Shown: positions 1 to 5,181 of the stretch, in pieces | Layout: every line of letters starts with the position of its first letter | How positions within the stretch are numbered: the stretch's first letter is position 1 | Source of the DNA: a virus | DNA length: 5,181 nucleotides | Direction: 5' to 3' (one strand) | Virus genome (UHGV): UHGV-0205084 | The notes under the pieces: model-generated | What the model saw: the letters and a program-made list of their open reading frames with translations, nothing else | Database searches by the model: none | Told to the model about the DNA's origin: nothing | Position numbers and translations under genes: made by a program

Positions 1-939
1 ATGCTATGTGTTAACCAAATACAAGTTCTGAATCCCAAGACGGGTAAATTTATTAAAGTCCCTTGTGGTACTTGTTACGCTTGTCAAAGTAATAAGCGCT
101 CGTCCTGGATGTTCCGTAATACGGTTGAACTAGAGTACTCACAGAGTGCGTTCTTCTGTACTCTTACATACAATGATACTGCCTTGCTGGGTCTTCCGTA
201 TCACGCTTCTTCTCAACTGCGAATGCCCTTGAAATATCATTATCAACGCTGGCTTAAGCGCTTGCGTAAAGCGTTACAGCCTGCTAAAGTTCGGTATTTC
301 TTGTGCCACGAGTATGGCGATGAGTCTCTACGTCCTCACTATCACGTTATACTGTATTTAGATCGGTCTATGTCTCTCACAGATATGCGCCGTCTTATAT
401 CTGATACTTGGACTAATGGTAATATACAGTGTGATTATGTTACCCCTGCTAGGATACATTATCTATCTAAGTACGTTACTAAGCAGTTCCGCAACGTGAA
501 AGTATCTGGTCGCTCAGTCGATTATATATTTAATCATGTGTGGGCAAATAGAGCTCTTCAGCATCGTTATATAGTCGAATTCTACCTCAAAAAGTTCTCG
601 TTTGTTGTAGCAAGTCAAGGCTTAGGTTGTCAGCTCCTGCGGGAGCCTGCTTTTATACGCTGGTTTTGGGATCACCTAGAGCCAGGTGAATCGTATCCTA
701 CTTATGTTATCGGAGGTCACTCCTATACGCTACCACGTATCTATTTGAAAAAGCTAGTGCCAGAGATATGGCGCGAAGCTATTACCCCCGATATATCGCC
801 CGAGGCTAAATATGCCCGTATGTCTGATATCGCGTCTGACGCTAATTTAACCGTAAAACAGTATGTGGAAAATGCGCGCTACATACAAGACCGTAAGTCT
901 ACCATTATCCGCGCTAATAACAAAAAATCCCCTTTGTAA
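1..939 (+). CDS. Replication initiation protein (Microviridae VP4 / phiX174 gene A-like superfamily I rolling-circle endonuclease)
   Basis: The 312-aa ORF carries a zinc-finger-like CGTCYAC (aa 22-28, nt 64-84), RCR motif 1 FFCTLTY (aa 51-57, nt 151-171) and HUH motif 2 HYHVILY (aa 113-119, nt 337-357). Motif 3 YLSKYVTK (aa 154-161, nt 460-483) has two tyrosines in the Y-x-x-K-Y-x-x-K arrangement seen in phiX174 gpA (YVAKYVNK). The ATG is at window position 1, so in a circular genome the upstream context lies at the window end. Confidence 0.9.
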   Translation: MLCVNQIQVLNPKTGKFIKVPCGTCYACQSNKRSSWMFRNTVELEYSQSAFFCTLTYNDTALLGLPYHASSQLRMPLKYHYQRWLKRLRKALQPAKVRYFLCHEYGDESLRPHYHVILYLDRSMSLTDMRRLISDTWTNGNIQCDYVTPARIHYLSKYVTKQFRNVKVSGRSVDYIFNHVWANRALQHRYIVEFYLKKFSFVVASQGLGCQLLREPAFIRWFWDHLEPGESYPTYVIGGHSYTLPRIYLKKLVPEIWREAITPDISPEAKYARMSDIASDANLTVKQYVENARYIQDRKSTIIRANNKKSPL

Positions 940-941
940 CT

Positions 942-1070
942 ATGAAGTTATCAAATCGCAAAGTCGGTTTCTTCGCTAGGTTGCGTAAGTTCCGAATCCC
1001 TGTGCTACTGCTATTGCTGGCAGTGGTTGTTGTCTGTGTTGCTTTCGGATGGTTTTCCTTTTTAGTCTAG
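942..1070 (+). CDS. Small hypothetical protein (42 aa): basic N-terminal 18 residues followed by a 22-residue hydrophobic helix, MKLSNRKVGFFARLRKFRIPVLLLLLAVVVVCVAFGWFSFLV. Candidate membrane/lysis protein or J/ORF8-like basic DNA-binding protein
   Basis: Not in the supplied ORF track (probably below its length cutoff). I translated it by hand: ATG at 942 is 2 nt after the Rep stop (937-939), and stop TAG at 1068-1070 is 6 nt before the next ATG at 1077. It therefore fills the Rep-to-ORF132 gap exactly, in a genome where every other gene is similarly abutted. It has 7 K/R in the first 18 residues, then a poly-Leu/Val segment of transmembrane length. Confidence 0.45.
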   Translation: MKLSNRKVGFFARLRKFRIPVLLLLLAVVVVCVAFGWFSFLV

Positions 1071-1478: not shown

Positions 1479-3389
1479 ATGCCAAACCTAACTAAGTATT
1501 CACTTGACCACGAAGTTCGGTCGAGTTTTGAAATGGGTCAACTCATCCCATTTTTGTGCCAAGAGGTTGTACCAGGCGATAAGTATCGCGTGCAGTCTAG
1601 TACGCTCGTGCGTCTCCAGCCTATGTTATCCCCGCTGATGCATAGACTTGATTACTATCAAAGGTACTATTATGTGCCTTATCGTCTTCTCATACCTAAC
1701 TATGAGCAGTTACTGACAGATCCCGATAGTGGTAACACTGTTCCAGGTATGGATAAGTATCTACAATATACTGCGCATACCCTAAAGGATTTGTTCCTTG
1801 AAAAACCTCTGTTGGAGTATTTTGGTCTTGCATCGTCATTAGATGGTACTCACCCCGATAATGTGATTAAGGATCTTAATGCTACTCCTCTACTTGCTTA
1901 TTACCTTATATATAATCATTATTATATGAGGTCAGACCTTGATAAGCGTTATATTGACCAATTGCGCCCCGAAAACTTTACTAGTGCTGAGTTGCGCAAA
2001 TACATTGGTAATGTGATGTACGTTAATGAAGGACTTGATTATTTTACTTCTGCTAAGACTTCCACGCAGTACGGCAATATGGTACAGTTGGATATGGACG
2101 GCAATAATACCATTACTGTTCCTGAGATGCGTCTCGCTGAGCGTTTGCAGTCTTTCCGAGAGAGGTTGTTGAGAGTTGGTGGTAAGTACGTGAATTATAT
2201 TAAGGAGTTCTTCGGAGTCGAACCCCTTGACGCGAGAGTGCAAATACCTAAGTATCTAGGTGGTGACTCTTACGTGCTTAATGTGTCAGATGTTGACCAG
2301 ACAGCTCCCTCTGAACTTGGTTCAGTTGGTGAGAGTTATGGTAAGTCAGTGTCTGTTAATCGTACGGGTCAGATTCAATATGACGTTTACGAGCATGGTC
2401 TTATTATTGGTCTTCACTTTGTGCGCCCCCGTCCGTCAAATATAGGTGGCTGTCCTAAGCTATTTACTAGACGTACGTATTTTGATTTCTTCAATCCTCA
2501 CTTCTCCGCCTTGGGTTATCAAGAGATACAGGCGCGTGAACTTGATGTTGCACGACCAAAAGATGAAGCTTTCGGGTATGTACCGAGGTATGACGAGTAT
2601 CGTTATGGTAATGATATAGTTTCAGGTGATTTCAAGCGGTCTCTTGATTATTGGCATATGTCTAGAGATATAAGTAAGGAGAAGCTATCAGTTGACTTTG
2701 TGACTTGTCACCCAGATAATCGTGTGTTCTCGTTTCAAAATTCTAGGCCAGATCTTTGTCGTATTCAGATGACTGGTAATATCATTGGTGTTGGTGCTGT
2801 TGGTACTTCGAAGTTCTTGCTAGATGGTTATGCTTGGATTCCAAAGAGTGCTTTGACGCAAGGTTCTGATATCATGTTCTCTATTTCTAAGGAATCTATA
2901 GCTAATGATTCTAAGTTATTATTTATGGGTAAACTCTCATCTTTTCAAGATGTTGATAGTGTTAGTTTAGTTCCTGGTCGAGTTGATCAAGACTCATTAT
3001 TTTTTAATACCTGGACTAAAGGTACTGATGTGTCTAATCGGTTTGATTTGGATAGAAATACTATCATTGAGATTCACGAAGATGATTATTCAAGTAGAGC
3101 TTCATTAGGTTCTTTATCTTATATTTCCTTTGGTGGTGAGACTTATCCGTTTTTGCTTGATGTTCGTAAGACTATACAGTTAACTAATGCGATGGATTCC
3201 TCTTCTATTGCTATTTTTAATGATGGCGAGAATGGTTTTAAGCAATTAGTTTCTTTTCCTCTAGGGTTTTATACTCTTATGCCTTATGATACTGCTAAGC
3301 CTATGGATAATCACGTATTGTCTGTGACTTACAATAATGTGGACGTATTGCGTCCTCTAGCTCGTTATGACGGTAATGTGTTAAGATGA
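1479..3389 (+). CDS. Major capsid protein VP1 (phiX174 F-like) of Microviridae
   Basis: The 636-aa ORF has an N-terminal region (...FEMGQLIPFLCQEVVPGDKYRVQSSTLVRLQPMLSPLMHRLDYYQRYYYVPYRLL, aa 17-71, with the PGD at aa 32-34) that matches the conserved N-terminal beta-strand region of gokushovirus VP1. Size and position (immediately upstream of VP2) fit as well. Confidence 0.88.
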   Translation: MPNLTKYSLDHEVRSSFEMGQLIPFLCQEVVPGDKYRVQSSTLVRLQPMLSPLMHRLDYYQRYYYVPYRLLIPNYEQLLTDPDSGNTVPGMDKYLQYTAHTLKDLFLEKPLLEYFGLASSLDGTHPDNVIKDLNATPLLAYYLIYNHYYMRSDLDKRYIDQLRPENFTSAELRKYIGNVMYVNEGLDYFTSAKTSTQYGNMVQLDMDGNNTITVPEMRLAERLQSFRERLLRVGGKYVNYIKEFFGVEPLDARVQIPKYLGGDSYVLNVSDVDQTAPSELGSVGESYGKSVSVNRTGQIQYDVYEHGLIIGLHFVRPRPSNIGGCPKLFTRRTYFDFFNPHFSALGYQEIQARELDVARPKDEAFGYVPRYDEYRYGNDIVSGDFKRSLDYWHMSRDISKEKLSVDFVTCHPDNRVFSFQNSRPDLCRIQMTGNIIGVGAVGTSKFLLDGYAWIPKSALTQGSDIMFSISKESIANDSKLLFMGKLSSFQDVDSVSLVPGRVDQDSLFFNTWTKGTDVSNRFDLDRNTIIEIHEDDYSSRASLGSLSYISFGGETYPFLLDVRKTIQLTNAMDSSSIAIFNDGENGFKQLVSFPLGFYTLMPYDTAKPMDNHVLSVTYNNVDVLRPLARYDGNVLR

Positions 3390-3395
3390 TAAGTT

Positions 3396-4430
3396 ATGGA
3401 TCCCGTTACTATTGCAGGTCTTGCAGGTGCAGGCGCTAGTCTTGTCGGAGGTCTTATAAATAATGCTTGGTCTGATGCTCGTACAGAGAAACAGTACAGG
3501 CAAATGAATGAGATGCAAGATAAGATGAACGCATATAATGCGCCCGTTGCTCAAATGGCTCGCTTGCGTGCGGCTGGATTGAATCCTAATCTTGTGTATG
3601 CGAATGGTGGTGCTGTTATGCAGTCCGCTGTCGGTAATGCTCCGAACCCTCCTAACTCTGCCCCGATTGACACTCAGGGAGTGTTACAGATGGTGCAGAC
3701 GATTGTCGGTGGTATGCTAGAAAAGGATAAGATACAAGCTCAGAAAGATATGCAGTCAGAGCAGATTACTGCTAATAAGGATTTGCAGACTGAGAAGATT
3801 ACTGCCGATAAGGATATGCAGTCTACTCAGATTGGTGCAACTAAGGATTTACAGACTGAGCAGATTACTGCTAATAAAGAGATGCAAAAAACTCAGATTG
3901 ATTCAACTGAAAAGATTGCTTCTGAGAATCGTGCTGAAAACGCTCGTCAGTTTGATTTGTCTTTTGAACAGCAGAAGCGTGTTGATGCTATGCGTTTATC
4001 TATTGATAGGAGTTTGGCAAATTCTCAAATAGCTTTGCATTCTTCTCAAATTGAGATTAATCGTTTGTCTGCTAATTTGTCTCGCCAGCTTGAACCTTTT
4101 TTGGTTGATAAGGCTAAGTTAGATTCTTTGTCTTCTCAGTTTTCTTTTAGTAATGAAAAGTTAGAGACTTTTCTTTCTCGTCCGTATGAGATTTCAGTTA
4201 CTGATTTAGAGAACGCTTATAAAGATGCTGGTTTGTCTGTTCCTAGTGCTTTTGGATTGTCTCAAATGGTAGATTATCATAATGAGGCCGTTAAAGCTTG
4301 GAATCAAGAAGTTAAAACTAATAGGACAAAACTTTCTGATGATGAGTTTTATTCTGGTTGGATGCATCTTTGGAATGCTATTTCTGCTCCTACTCAGATG
4401 GCTACTTCTTTGCTTTTCAAGAAGAAGTAG
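3396..4430 (+). CDS. Minor capsid / DNA pilot protein VP2 (phiX174 H-like)
   Basis: The N-terminus is Gly/Ala-rich and hydrophobic (AGLAGAGASLVGGLI, aa 7-21). The hallmark AQMARLRAAGLNPNLVY (AAGLNP at aa 59-64, nt 3570-3587) is found in Microviridae VP2 proteins. A central tandem 11-aa repeat predicted to form a coiled coil resembles the phiX174 H tube domain. The ORF sits immediately downstream of VP1. Confidence 0.8.
   Translation: MDPVTIAGLAGAGASLVGGLINNAWSDARTEKQYRQMNEMQDKMNAYNAPVAQMARLRAAGLNPNLVYANGGAVMQSAVGNAPNPPNSAPIDTQGVLQMVQTIVGGMLEKDKIQAQKDMQSEQITANKDLQTEKITADKDMQSTQIGATKDLQTEQITANKEMQKTQIDSTEKIASENRAENARQFDLSFEQQKRVDAMRLSIDRSLANSQIALHSSQIEINRLSANLSRQLEPFLVDKAKLDSLSSQFSFSNEKLETFLSRPYEISVTDLENAYKDAGLSVPSAFGLSQMVDYHNEAVKAWNQEVKTNRTKLSDDEFYSGWMHLWNAISAPTQMATSLLFKKK
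3747..3911 (+). repeat. Five tandem 33-nt repeats (hendecad 11-aa units DMQSEQITANK / DLQTEKITADK / DMQSTQIGATK / DLQTEQITANK / EMQKTQIDSTE) inside VP2, with degenerate flanking copies extending to about 3723..3941
   Basis: Direct reading. Units are 3747-3779, 3780-3812, 3813-3845, 3846-3878 and 3879-3911. Unit 1 and unit 4 are 28/33 nt identical. Odd and even units alternate (gatatgcagtc... versus gatttgcagactgag...), which suggests a duplicated 66-nt higher-order unit. Confidence 0.9.
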
Positions 4431-4462: not shown

Positions 4463-4603
4463 ATGAATATATTTATCAACTATGTTCTTTATCCCTTGTT
4501 GGTGATATTTTGGTTCCTTGTATTCGTATGGCTTGTTTTGCTTCTTGCAAGGTCTATATGTCGTATTATTAAACAATTTCGTAATGGAAAAGAGAAGTTA
4601 TAA
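4463..4603 (+). CDS. Small hypothetical membrane protein (46 aa): MNIFINYVLYPLLVIFWFLVFVWLVLLLARSICRIIKQFRNGKEKL. One transmembrane helix followed by a basic C-terminal tail. Candidate lysis/holin-like protein
   Basis: First ATG after the VP2 stop (4428-4430) in the frame that the track lists as 4358..4603. It occupies the otherwise unexplained 150-nt VP2-VP3 gap and overlaps the VP3-like start by about 20 nt. Caveat: the region is T-rich, so hydrophobic translations appear in more than one frame. Confidence 0.35.
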   Translation: MNIFINYVLYPLLVIFWFLVFVWLVLLLARSICRIIKQFRNGKEKL

Positions 4604-4880
4604 GTATGTGGCTCGTGTGCCACAGAGTGTAGTGTCTGACACTTTACCGAATCAGACTGTAGACTTGTCTGTACTTGTTAAGCAGTTAATGGACGGTCAA
4701 GCACTTAATGTTGGATTATCATTGTCTGAGGACACTTCGGACACTCTAGACACTCCAGATATTACTAAGTATGATTTCCGTCATATGACAGTATCTGATG
4801 TAGATAATCTATTGTCTAAGGTTCAGCCGGTGCAGGTTGATGTGCCAGCTGAGACCGGTACGGCTCCCGTAGCCGATTGA
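4584..4880 (+). CDS. Putative internal scaffolding protein (VP3-like), acidic, 98 aa from ATG 4584. The track's longer version starts at TTG 4518
   Basis: Position after VP2 matches the gokushovirus VP1-VP2-VP3 order. It is acidic (D/E-rich: SEDTSDTLDTPDITKYDF...), as scaffolding proteins are. The first in-frame ATG is at 4584 (MEKRSYKYVARV...), whereas the track start at 4518 is a TTG. I do not recognise any sequence motif, so the call rests on position and composition only. Confidence 0.4.
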   Translation: MEKRSYKYVARVPQSVVSDTLPNQTVDLSVLVKQLMDGQALNVGLSLSEDTSDTLDTPDITKYDFRHMTVSDVDNLLSKVQPVQVDVPAETGTAPVAD

Positions 4881-4890
4881 TATTAATGGG
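4875..4890 (+). promoter_or_regulatory. Candidate (+)-strand replication origin nick site: gattgatattaatggg contains TTGATATTAAT, identical to the core of the phiX174 gpA cleavage site (CAACTTG^ATATTAATAAC)
   Basis: Exact 11-nt identity at 4877-4887 to the phiX174 origin as I remember it. It overlaps the VP3-like stop codon (TGA 4878-4880) and sits at the 5' edge of the structured intergenic region. The predicted nick would fall between G4879 and A4880. Confidence 0.4.
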
Positions 4891-4989
4891 TGCGGGGGCT
4901 GATGGCTTGTCCATTGCCCCCCTCACCTCTTTTGAGGTGGGGGCAATGGCATTTTGCCGAACCAGTCCTTCGGACTGCCCCCCCGCCCG
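4888..4989 (+). repeat. GC-rich island with nested inverted repeats built from four homopolymer tracts: G5 (4894-4898), C6 (4917-4922), G5 (4939-4943) and C7 (4978-4984). An outer imperfect stem (gggtgcgggggc 4888-4899 with gcccccccgcccg 4977-4989) encloses the 4911-4949 hairpin and a 6-bp hairpin cagtcc-ttc-ggactg (4963-4977)
   Basis: Direct reading. About 10 of 12 positions of the outer arms are complementary. The G and C tracts can also pair in the alternative register G5(4894) with C6(4917) and G5(4939) with C7(4978). Confidence 0.6.
4911..4956 (+). terminator. GC-rich hairpin (16 bp with a 3-nt bulge, TTTT loop) followed by cATTTTg. Possible intrinsic terminator after the VP3-like gene and/or ssDNA structural element
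   Basis: Left arm ccattgcccccctcacctc (4911-4929), loop tttt (4930-4933), right arm gaggtgggggcaatgg (4934-4949), T-run 4952-4955. Pairing was verified base by base. Confidence 0.45.
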
Positions 4990-5009
4990 TTAATTATCAC
5001 GAGAGAGCA

Positions 5010-5040
5010 GGCGATTACTCTTACTTGACATGTAATCGCC
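5010..5040 (+). promoter_or_regulatory. Perfect 9-bp inverted repeat ggcgattac / gtaatcgcc with a 13-nt loop tcttacttgacat carrying a consensus -35 hexamer TTGACA (5025-5030). Possible Rep promoter or operator element
   Basis: Arms are 5010-5018 and 5032-5040, verified base by base. No well-spaced TATAAT follows; the nearest -10-like hexamers are tgtaat at 5031-5036 (wrong spacing) and tatatt at 5061-5066. The promoter role is therefore tentative. Confidence 0.3.
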
Positions 5041-5181
5041 AAGTGACACCACGATACAAATATATTGTGGTGTTGTCTCTCTAAATAATTTGTAGTACAT
5101 TTGTGCCAGAGCTAGGTAACAATTCATTCTTAAATTTATTGATGCCTGCTTTTGGACTAAACGTATAACTCATTCTGACAA

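Follow-up and report, generated by a model that had tools for sequence, protein, structure and literature searches.

The viral-strand origin of bacteriophage phiX174 is cleaved by gpA between G4305 and A4306, a reaction carried out by Tyr343 and Tyr347 (recent preprint). The 30-nt recognition sequence of gpA, CAACTTG/ATATTAATAACACTATAGACCAC, is found in the phiX174 origin record as CAACTTGATATTAATAACACTATAGACCAC at positions 4299–4328. A core of the same type, CTTGATA, nicked as CTTG/ATA by an HUH initiator, characterizes the double-strand origins of pC194/pUB110-type plasmids; in pC194 itself (origin TTCTTTCTTATCTTGATAATAAGGG) our own reading of TTAT-CTTG-ATAA places the nick at the loop/stem junction of an inverted repeat. 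In CRESS-DNA viruses (geminivirus, circovirus, nanovirus) the nick motif TAGTATT/AC is situated in the loop of a conserved intergenic hairpin beside rep, and the stems of these origins covary around a fixed loop. For microviruses outside the phiX174 group, we know of no replication origin that has been mapped. The DNA analysed here, virus genome UHGV-0205084, is a complete circular microvirus genome of 5181 nt with every gene on the + strand; the whole stretch is referred to as the window, and coordinates are window positions. The element in question is a hairpin module in its intergenic region.

A sequence-only reading of the window had proposed a phiX174-type origin in the intergenic region and had placed the nick at an 11-mer, TTGATATTAAT, at the end of the last structural-module gene. 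The idea of such an origin is retained here, whereas the site is not. With a probability of roughly 0.7, sequence comparison indicates that the 11-mer is a chance match within the basal helix of a folded domain (domain 1), and that the viral-strand origin is a module about 147 nt further downstream, which presents ACTTG/ACAT, and with it the CTTGA core 5024–5028, in the loop of the hairpin 5010–5040.

A hairpin module with a phiX174-type nick core

The module is composed of a hairpin and a downstream TGACACC box, a candidate element for Rep binding (Table 1). The hairpin loop, 13 nt in length, contains ACTTGACAT, and by analogy with G4305/A4306 of phiX174 the nick is predicted between G5027 and A5028. 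The GAC of the box lies 18–20 nt 3′ of the predicted nick, which is the same spacing as in the 30-nt phiX174 origin; counted from the C of CTTG, phiX174 (…TAGACCAC) and the window (…GTGACACCAC) alike have GAC at positions +21 to +23. Core (ACTTGAYAT) and spacing thus both resemble the phiX174 (+) origin.

When the intergenic region was compared by blastn with those of two relatives whose Rep is 55–56% identical, a 5237-nt contig (L133) and a prophage (L134), the sole conserved patch covered window positions 5011–5051. Modules of the same layout are found in both and in a Porphyromonas prophage with a Rep of 60% identity (L132), and the stem shows A:T to G:C compensation among the relatives. 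The loop reads ACTTGATAT in L133, L134 and L132 as well as in L215, L275 and L010, matching nine consecutive bases of the phiX174 origin across the cut. All six carry the nick core CTTGATA, from which CTTGACA of the window deviates by one mismatch.

The likeness to phiX174 extends to the enzyme and to the strand. Like the phiX174 origin, the predicted origin is located on the coding (viral) strand, and in both phages the Rep is an HUH protein with two tyrosines four residues apart. The similarity of the two-tyrosine motif to that of gpA, pointed out in the sequence-only reading, was borne out (HYLSKYVTK in the window, FYVAKYVNK in gpA): the catalytic-type residues Y154 and Y158 lie within YLSKYVTK and are, together with the HUH histidines H113 and H115, invariant across 17 Rep homologues. 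In contrast to phiX174, where core and box are separated by a fixed AT-rich stretch, the spacer of the module is formed by the 3′ arm of a lineage-specific hairpin, and the box reads TGACAC(C) in place of TAGACCAC. Compared with the module, the stem of the pC194-type plasmids is much shorter and no TGACAC box is evident in pC194, whose Rep employs a single catalytic tyrosine and a glutamate. CRESS-DNA virus origins differ in loop sequence, and their Rep, which belongs to another superfamily, has a single tyrosine together with an SF3 helicase; its binding iterons are located 5′ of the hairpin. In conclusion, the element probably belongs with phiX174 and pC194 among the rolling-circle origins nicked at CTTG/ATA, the core being displayed here in a hairpin loop.

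By analogy with phiX174 gpA and pC194 RepA, Rep would bind supercoiled replicative-form DNA at the TGACACC box and the arm next to it, and melting or extrusion of the inverted repeat would render the loop single-stranded. Tyr154 or Tyr158 could then cut at G5027/A5028 and stay attached to the 5′ end, and the 3′-OH would be extended by a host polymerase in rolling-circle synthesis. After one round, the second tyrosine would cut the regenerated site and the displaced strand would be ligated into a circle.

Occurrence of the module across the family

Since a search with the single Rep sequence reached close relatives only, a wider set was obtained with a Rep alignment as query. It comprises 80 microvirus contigs from IMG/VR, with Rep sequences 25–43% identical to that of the window except for L135 (94%). 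On the Rep strand, 42 contigs possess a hairpin of 9 bp or more whose loop or 3′ junction contains CTTGA, compared with 13 for the other strand and 1 for shuffled sequences, and 37 of 43 such sites are non-coding. At 34 of the 39 distinct hairpin sites the distance from the C of CTTGA to a downstream TGAC is exactly 20 or 21 nt, as opposed to 4 of 228 CTTGA sites that lack a hairpin; moreover, the base following CTTGA is a T in 37 of the 39.

The stem sequences are unrelated between lineages. When 37 modules were aligned with MAFFT, each of the nine stem pairs proved to be changed on both sides, and the covariation score of 0.499 compares with 0.215 for shuffled alignments (reached by 0 of 500) and 0.10–0.19 for slid partners. 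RNAalifold predicted no structure on this alignment, owing to a partial misalignment of the 5′ arms, and the stem was therefore supplied explicitly. From the same alignment (A4) a covariance model, R1, was built and used for searches with filters switched off. In the window, R1 has a single match, which coincides with the module, and matches were also obtained in the spacer between VP3 and ORF8 of Chp2 and in intergenic regions of SpV4 and phiMH2K (Table 1). Among 60 loci from bacterial genome assemblies that had no part in the training, R1 matched 33 times in 32 loci, with 32 matches on the Rep strand; the positive prophages include those of Treponema, Helicobacter, Intestinirhabdus, Parabacteroides, Phocaeicola and Oscillibacter. 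Among untrained viral microvirus contigs, a match is present in 40 of 51.

In the locus of Intestinirhabdus alba (L246) two modules are found on the same strand, at 4212–4257 and 8543–8588, 4331 nt apart; this pair could reflect a tandem prophage or a duplicated end.

A folded domain around the 11-mer

The region 4870–5130, folded as single-stranded DNA, reaches −55.8 kcal/mol with a z-score of −7.35, in line with the earlier remark that a GC-rich hairpin cluster adjoins the 11-mer. The fold consists of domain 1 (4874–5001), a three-way junction with a long closing helix (helix 1), followed by the hairpins 5010–5040 and 5046–5073. Positions 4878–4887, which make up most of the 11-mer, are paired in both the minimum free energy (MFE) and the centroid fold.

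Ten close relatives, with Rep 76–97% identical, were compared. In their alignment helix 1 comprises 23 pairs with 96.8% of cells paired, and seven pairs are changed on both sides. The variable positions of the 11-mer covary with a partner about 100 nt downstream: the G of TGA forms a G:C pair in six sequences and A:U in three, alignment columns 29/139 are U:A in seven and A:U in three, and the three pairs immediately 3′ of the motif alternate between G:C and A:U. For the whole structure the covariation score is 0.164, compared with 0.100 in shuffled alignments (0 of 500 reach the observed value) and 0.03–0.07 with slid partners. Covariation of helix 1 indicates that selection acts on pairing and not on sequence.

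Our best guess is that domain 1 terminates transcription, serves as an origin for the complementary strand, or combines the two functions. In phiX174 the terminator T_F and the (−) origin, a PriA hairpin, overlap (recent preprint). Like phiX174 T_F/ori(−) and the complementary-strand origin of G4, domain 1 places GC-rich hairpins in an intergenic region directly after a structural gene, but it shares no sequence similarity with them and differs in its three-way junction, its 23-bp closing helix and its Bacteroidota host.

A narrower view, in which the whole domain including the helix of the 11-mer is only an elaborate rho-independent terminator of the structural operon and takes no part in DNA replication, appears possible but rather unlikely. 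The position of domain 1 directly after the last open reading frame (ORF) and the overlap known from phiX174 are in agreement with it, as is the nearly invariant inner hairpin, which in the window is followed by CATTTTG; in addition, L133, L134 and L132 possess canonical terminators, a hairpin followed by a T-run, at the corresponding place. On the other hand, a terminator requires neither a covarying 23-bp outer helix nor a third hairpin, the T-run is missing in several close relatives, and a consensus terminator scan called only a weak site at 4861–4875 and left the inner hairpin uncalled.

Two further assignments for this region were rejected. A domain 2 outer helix (4992–5006 with 5076–5090) is predicted in the window, but only 66.7% of its cells are paired in the relatives and it shows no covariation. 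Nor is domain 1 likely to be a folded attP as in CTXphi, because the att core at 5156–5178 lies well outside it.

Alternative readings of the module and of the 11-mer

Several observations speak against the module as viral-strand origin. In SpV4 and phiMH2K the sequence is ACTTGTT and not ACTTGAT, so that not all modules have the same base 3′ of the predicted cut; as second base past the putative cut, members of the close clade have C (the window, as part of CTTGACAT), A (OP549878) or T (L215, L275 and L010). The R1 match in phiMH2K is weak (E 0.46) and the one in phiX174 is not significant (6.9 bits). The phiX174 origin, moreover, is contained in gene A and does not fold into a hairpin (z −0.4), whereas the module is intergenic and the modules of the window, L133, L134, Chp2 and SpV4 fold with z-scores of −4.9 to −7.1. 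In roughly a fifth to a half of the surveyed genomes the module is undetectable. The training set of R1 was selected for CTTGA, stem and TGAC, and invariance of these letters within A4 is therefore in part given by construction; the blastn patch, the enrichment over shuffled sequences, the co-occurrence of TGAC and the matches in untrained sequences are independent of this selection. In seven contigs of 5.5–5.9 kb (L193, L194, L202, L205, L208, L211 and L213), full hairpin-CTTGATA-TGACACC modules scoring 34–46 bits are located on the strand opposite to Rep and VP1 (in L194 at 3090–3138, minus strand). Should the module indicate which strand is nicked, packaging of the non-coding strand would be expected for these phages.

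Finally, a hairpin on the viral strand is what a complementary-strand origin is expected to look like, such hairpins being a hallmark of the (−) origins of phiX174, G4 and M13. The module might accordingly be real and yet serve host primase, RNA polymerase or PriA on the incoming single-stranded DNA, or act as a packaging signal. Conserved Cap-Rep hairpins in other small microviruses have been interpreted as complementary-strand origins, tentatively and without certainty (Olo Ndela et al., PMC9865509), and the strand bias of the module is equally compatible with this function. It is nevertheless considered improbable, and ranked below the viral-strand origin, because the loop matches the substrate of a Rep, namely the cleavage core of phiX174 and pC194, because the spacing of the box is that of the phiX174 (+) origin, and because phages of Chlamydia, Spiroplasma, Bacteroidota, Proteobacteria, Spirochaetes and Firmicutes have kept the same loop and box with diverged stems. 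Constancy of loop and box across host phyla fits a phage-encoded reader better than host enzymes.

It is very unlikely that Rep nicks the 11-mer itself, after G4879, or uses it as a secondary site or for termination. Its exact match to phiX174, which spans the phiX174 cut site, was confirmed, including the overlap with the TGA stop codon, and the phiX174 origin sequence given in the sequence-only reading proved correct (rep_origin annotated at 4306). The 11-mer occurs exactly once in the window, on the + strand. The intergenic region adjoins it, TTGAT is retained in seven of the ten close relatives, and cleavage at the base of a hairpin is known for some HUH enzymes. However, the match ends at 11 nt (GCCGA upstream where phiX174 has CCAAC, GGGTGC downstream where it has AACACT), and three of its bases are the stop codon. 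In first-order Markov sequences of window composition, the exact 11-mer appeared on the + strand in 0.67% of simulations, any nick-spanning 11-mer of the phiX174 origin in 2.5%, and a match of at least 11 nt to the 30-nt origin on either strand in 10.7%; the chance probability is thus about 0.007 to 0.1, and the order of 1e-3 given previously was too optimistic. The match is accordingly genuine, with a significance that is modest.

Comparison with relatives, the check suggested in the sequence-only reading, refutes the proposed nick site, since the 11-mer is not conserved. Six versions of the motif are found in the ten close relatives, TTGATATTAAT in three, CTAATTTAAAC and TTGATTTTAAC in two each, and TTGATGTTAAT, TTGATTTAAAC and TTAGTATTAAT in one each; the G/A dinucleotide of the nick is lost in three (CTAAT in two, TTAGT in one). 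Retention of TGA is accounted for by its role as stop codon, with TAA or TAG where the motif differs, and the variable bases covary with their pairing partner in helix 1. At the corresponding position of L133, L134 and L132 no counterpart was detected. Measured against the core CTTG/ATA, the window reads ATTGATA, with TTGATA present but the C of CTTG missing; the sequence 3′ of the 11-mer, GGGTGCGGGGGCTGATGG, contains no TGAC at +20 or +21; and R1, with filters off, gives no match at 4877. In IMG/VR, ACTTGACATGTAAT was matched exactly at 120 loci, and with a single exception these are unrelated chance or coding matches. The 11-mer is therefore judged to be a chance match, composed of the stop codon that ends the last ORF of the structural module and of the 5′ strand of the 23-bp helix, and illustrates how an attractive match can arise from such a combination.

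That the loop hexamer TTGACA (5025–5030), in itself a perfect −35 consensus, functions as the −35 element of a sigma-70 promoter and thereby explains conservation of the hairpin is most improbable, since the scan found no −10 partner at 16–18 nt spacing, relatives read TTGATA or TTGAAA, the host is a Porphyromonas and promoters of Bacteroidota follow a consensus other than the sigma-70 type, and stem covariation as well as TGAC spacing would be left unexplained.

Implications of the proposed viral-strand origin

That the module, defined as an (A)CTTG/AT loop, a 3′ arm and TGACAC(C), constitutes the general viral-strand origin of microviruses outside the Bullavirinae, homologous to that of phiX174 and so far undescribed, can be proposed only tentatively and is less likely than not. 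Full-text literature searches brought up neither an account of the module nor an origin mapped in such phages, an older mention, e.g. in the original accounts of Chp2 and phiMH2K, being possible. Non-phiX174 microviruses are among the most abundant single-stranded DNA phages of gut and environmental viromes, and R1 recovers the module from the majority of related genomes and prophages. If the proposal holds true, it would provide a nick prediction at one-base precision for thousands of uncultured genomes and define the packaged strand, with antisense DNA packaged by one clade (L193, L194 and others). Confirmation of the module as origin would anchor genome start coordinates, identify the packaged strand and supply parts for vectors that produce single-stranded DNA in Bacteroidota, and the bipartite architecture of the phiX174 origin would be ancestral to the family.

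Genome organization

Coordinates of the origin module, of the surrounding features and of the genes are compiled in Table 1.

Table 1. Features of the window and matching modules in other genomes. Positions refer to the window, except for R1 matches in other genomes, which are numbered in the genome named.
Feature	Positions	Strand	Remarks
Candidate (+) strand origin hairpin	5010–5040	+	9 bp; 5′ arm GGCGATTAC 5010–5018; loop TCTTACTTGACAT 5019–5031; 3′ arm GTAATCGCC 5032–5040
phiX174/pC194-type nick core CTTGACAT	5024–5031	+	CTTGATAT in relatives; predicted cut G5027/A5028
TGACACC box	5044–5050	+	3 nt past 3′ arm; candidate Rep binding ('key') element
Second hairpin	5046–5073	+	begins within TGACACC box; sequence differs in L133 and L275, hairpin kept
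Possible Bacteroidetes-type Rep promoter	5073–5103	+	TTG 5073–5075, 20-nt spacer, TACATTTG 5096–5103; block nearly invariant in close relatives
attP core ACTAAACGTATAACTCATTCTGA	5156–5178	+	duplicated as attL/attR around 92%-identical prophage
11-mer TTGATATTAAT	4877–4887	+	exact match to phiX174 origin positions 5–15; judged chance match
TGA stop of ORF 4518–4880	4878–4880	+	inside 11-mer; TAA or TAG in some relatives
Helix 1, 5′ strand (domain 1 basal helix)	4874–4899	+	MFE and centroid folds; holds 10 of 11 motif bases
Helix 1, 3′ strand (pairing partner of motif)	4977–5001	+	inverted repeat, fold, covariation
GC-rich inner hairpin of domain 1	4911–4949	+	CCATTGCCCCCCTCACCTC TTTT GAGGTGGGGGCAATGG; nearly invariant; terminator-like
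Rep	1–939	+	PF23343, E 1.4e-18; HUH endonuclease
42-aa ORF	942–1070	+	no family
Endolysin-like ORF, 132 aa	1077–1475	+	phrog_873, E 3.4e-25; no Pfam family
Major capsid protein (VP1, 636 aa)	1479–3389	+	Phage_F
DNA pilot protein	3396–4430	+	PHROG pilot families
VP3-position ORF	4518–4880	+	no protein family matched
Sole long non-coding region	4881–5181		
R1 match, window	5005–5052		47.6 bits, E 2.8e-10; single match
R1 match, Chp2 (L281)	2901–2951		E 7e-5; VP3-ORF8 spacer
R1 match, SpV4 (L283)	507–554		E 0.025; intergenic
R1 match, phiMH2K (L282)	3295–3343		E 0.46, weak; intergenic
R1 match, phiX174	4297–4309		6.9 bits, not significant; best local match, on true origin
Module, window			GGCGATTAC-TCTTACTTGACAT-GTAATCGCC-AAG-TGACACC
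Module, L133			GCGATTAC-CTATACTTGATAT-GTAATCGC-TAAC-TGACACC
Module, L134			GCGGTTAC-ATTACTTGATAT-GTAACCGC-CAAG-TGACAC
Module, L132			GCGGTTTAC-TATACTTGATAT-TGTAACCGC-TAAC-TGACAG

Over most of its length the window is 81–88% identical to five genomes in GenBank that were obtained from samples of the human vagina and gut. Outside this clade, the closest named matches are unclassified microviruses with 35–48% identity, and the label "gokushovirus-like" is doubtful for this genome. The Gokushovirinae, with Chp2, SpV4 and phiMH2K as reference members, are lytic phages with genomes of about 4.5 kb. In the annotation of OP549878 a coding sequence ends at the same place as the VP3-position ORF. The endolysin-like ORF, situated between Rep and the capsid gene, probably encodes a lysis enzyme. 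A search of the whole window against Rfam gave no match up to E = 1.

Downstream of the module, the block 5073–5103 fits what we take to be the −33/−7 promoter consensus of Bacteroidetes. A scan of the intergenic region for sigma-70 promoters and terminators revealed nothing useful, and no sigma-70-type promoter at 5073–5103.

Within the gene of the pilot protein a tandem repeat is present at 3744–3908, with a unit of 33 or 66 nt in 4.2 or 2.5 copies and 71–78% matches. It is translated into 11-residue repeats such as KDMQ(S/T)EQITAN.

Host and integration

A prophage 92% identical to the whole window, with a Rep of 97% identity (L215), is found in a 40-kb contig of the uncultured Porphyromonas sp. 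UMGS166, between a gene with a fimbrillin domain on one side and dihydroorotate dehydrogenase genes on the other. Its ends are marked by attL (AACTAAACATAAAACTCATTCTGA; L215 6975–7000) and attR (GACTAAACATTTAACTCATTCTGA; 12160–12185), which are imperfect direct repeats of the form ACTAAACAT[AA/TT]AACTCATTCTGA. As these repeats bound the prophage, attP can be assigned to the att core of the window, immediately 5′ of the Rep start codon ATG. No integrase gene was detected in the prophage. It can be concluded that the phage is temperate in Porphyromonas.

Rep homologues of 55–60% identity likewise occur in prophages, one of them in a Porphyromonas assembly, which lie beside a DUF4301 gene and lack an integrase. 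A repressor-like gene with a helix-turn-helix domain is present in L131/L132 and in L134; in L131 (5176–5694) and L134 (5622–6095), both inserted beside the DUF4301 gene, it is assigned to HTH_3 (cI-like), and it is absent from the window genome.

The Bacteroidales microvirus proviruses BMV1-7, which presumably correspond to the group named "Alpavirinae", share with this phage a Bacteroidales host, the lack of an integrase gene and short imperfect direct repeats at their flanks. The att core found here is ACTAAACrTwwAACTCATTCTGA. For such proviruses, recombination by host Xer recombinases at dif-like sites has been proposed (PMC3091885). The lifestyle of the phage resembles that of these proviruses and not that of classical lytic gokushoviruses.

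Integration at attP parts Rep from the origin module and from its own putative promoter: Rep comes to lie beside attL (L215 7001), module and promoter beside attR (12010–12110). Lysogeny may thus silence Rep through integration geometry alone.

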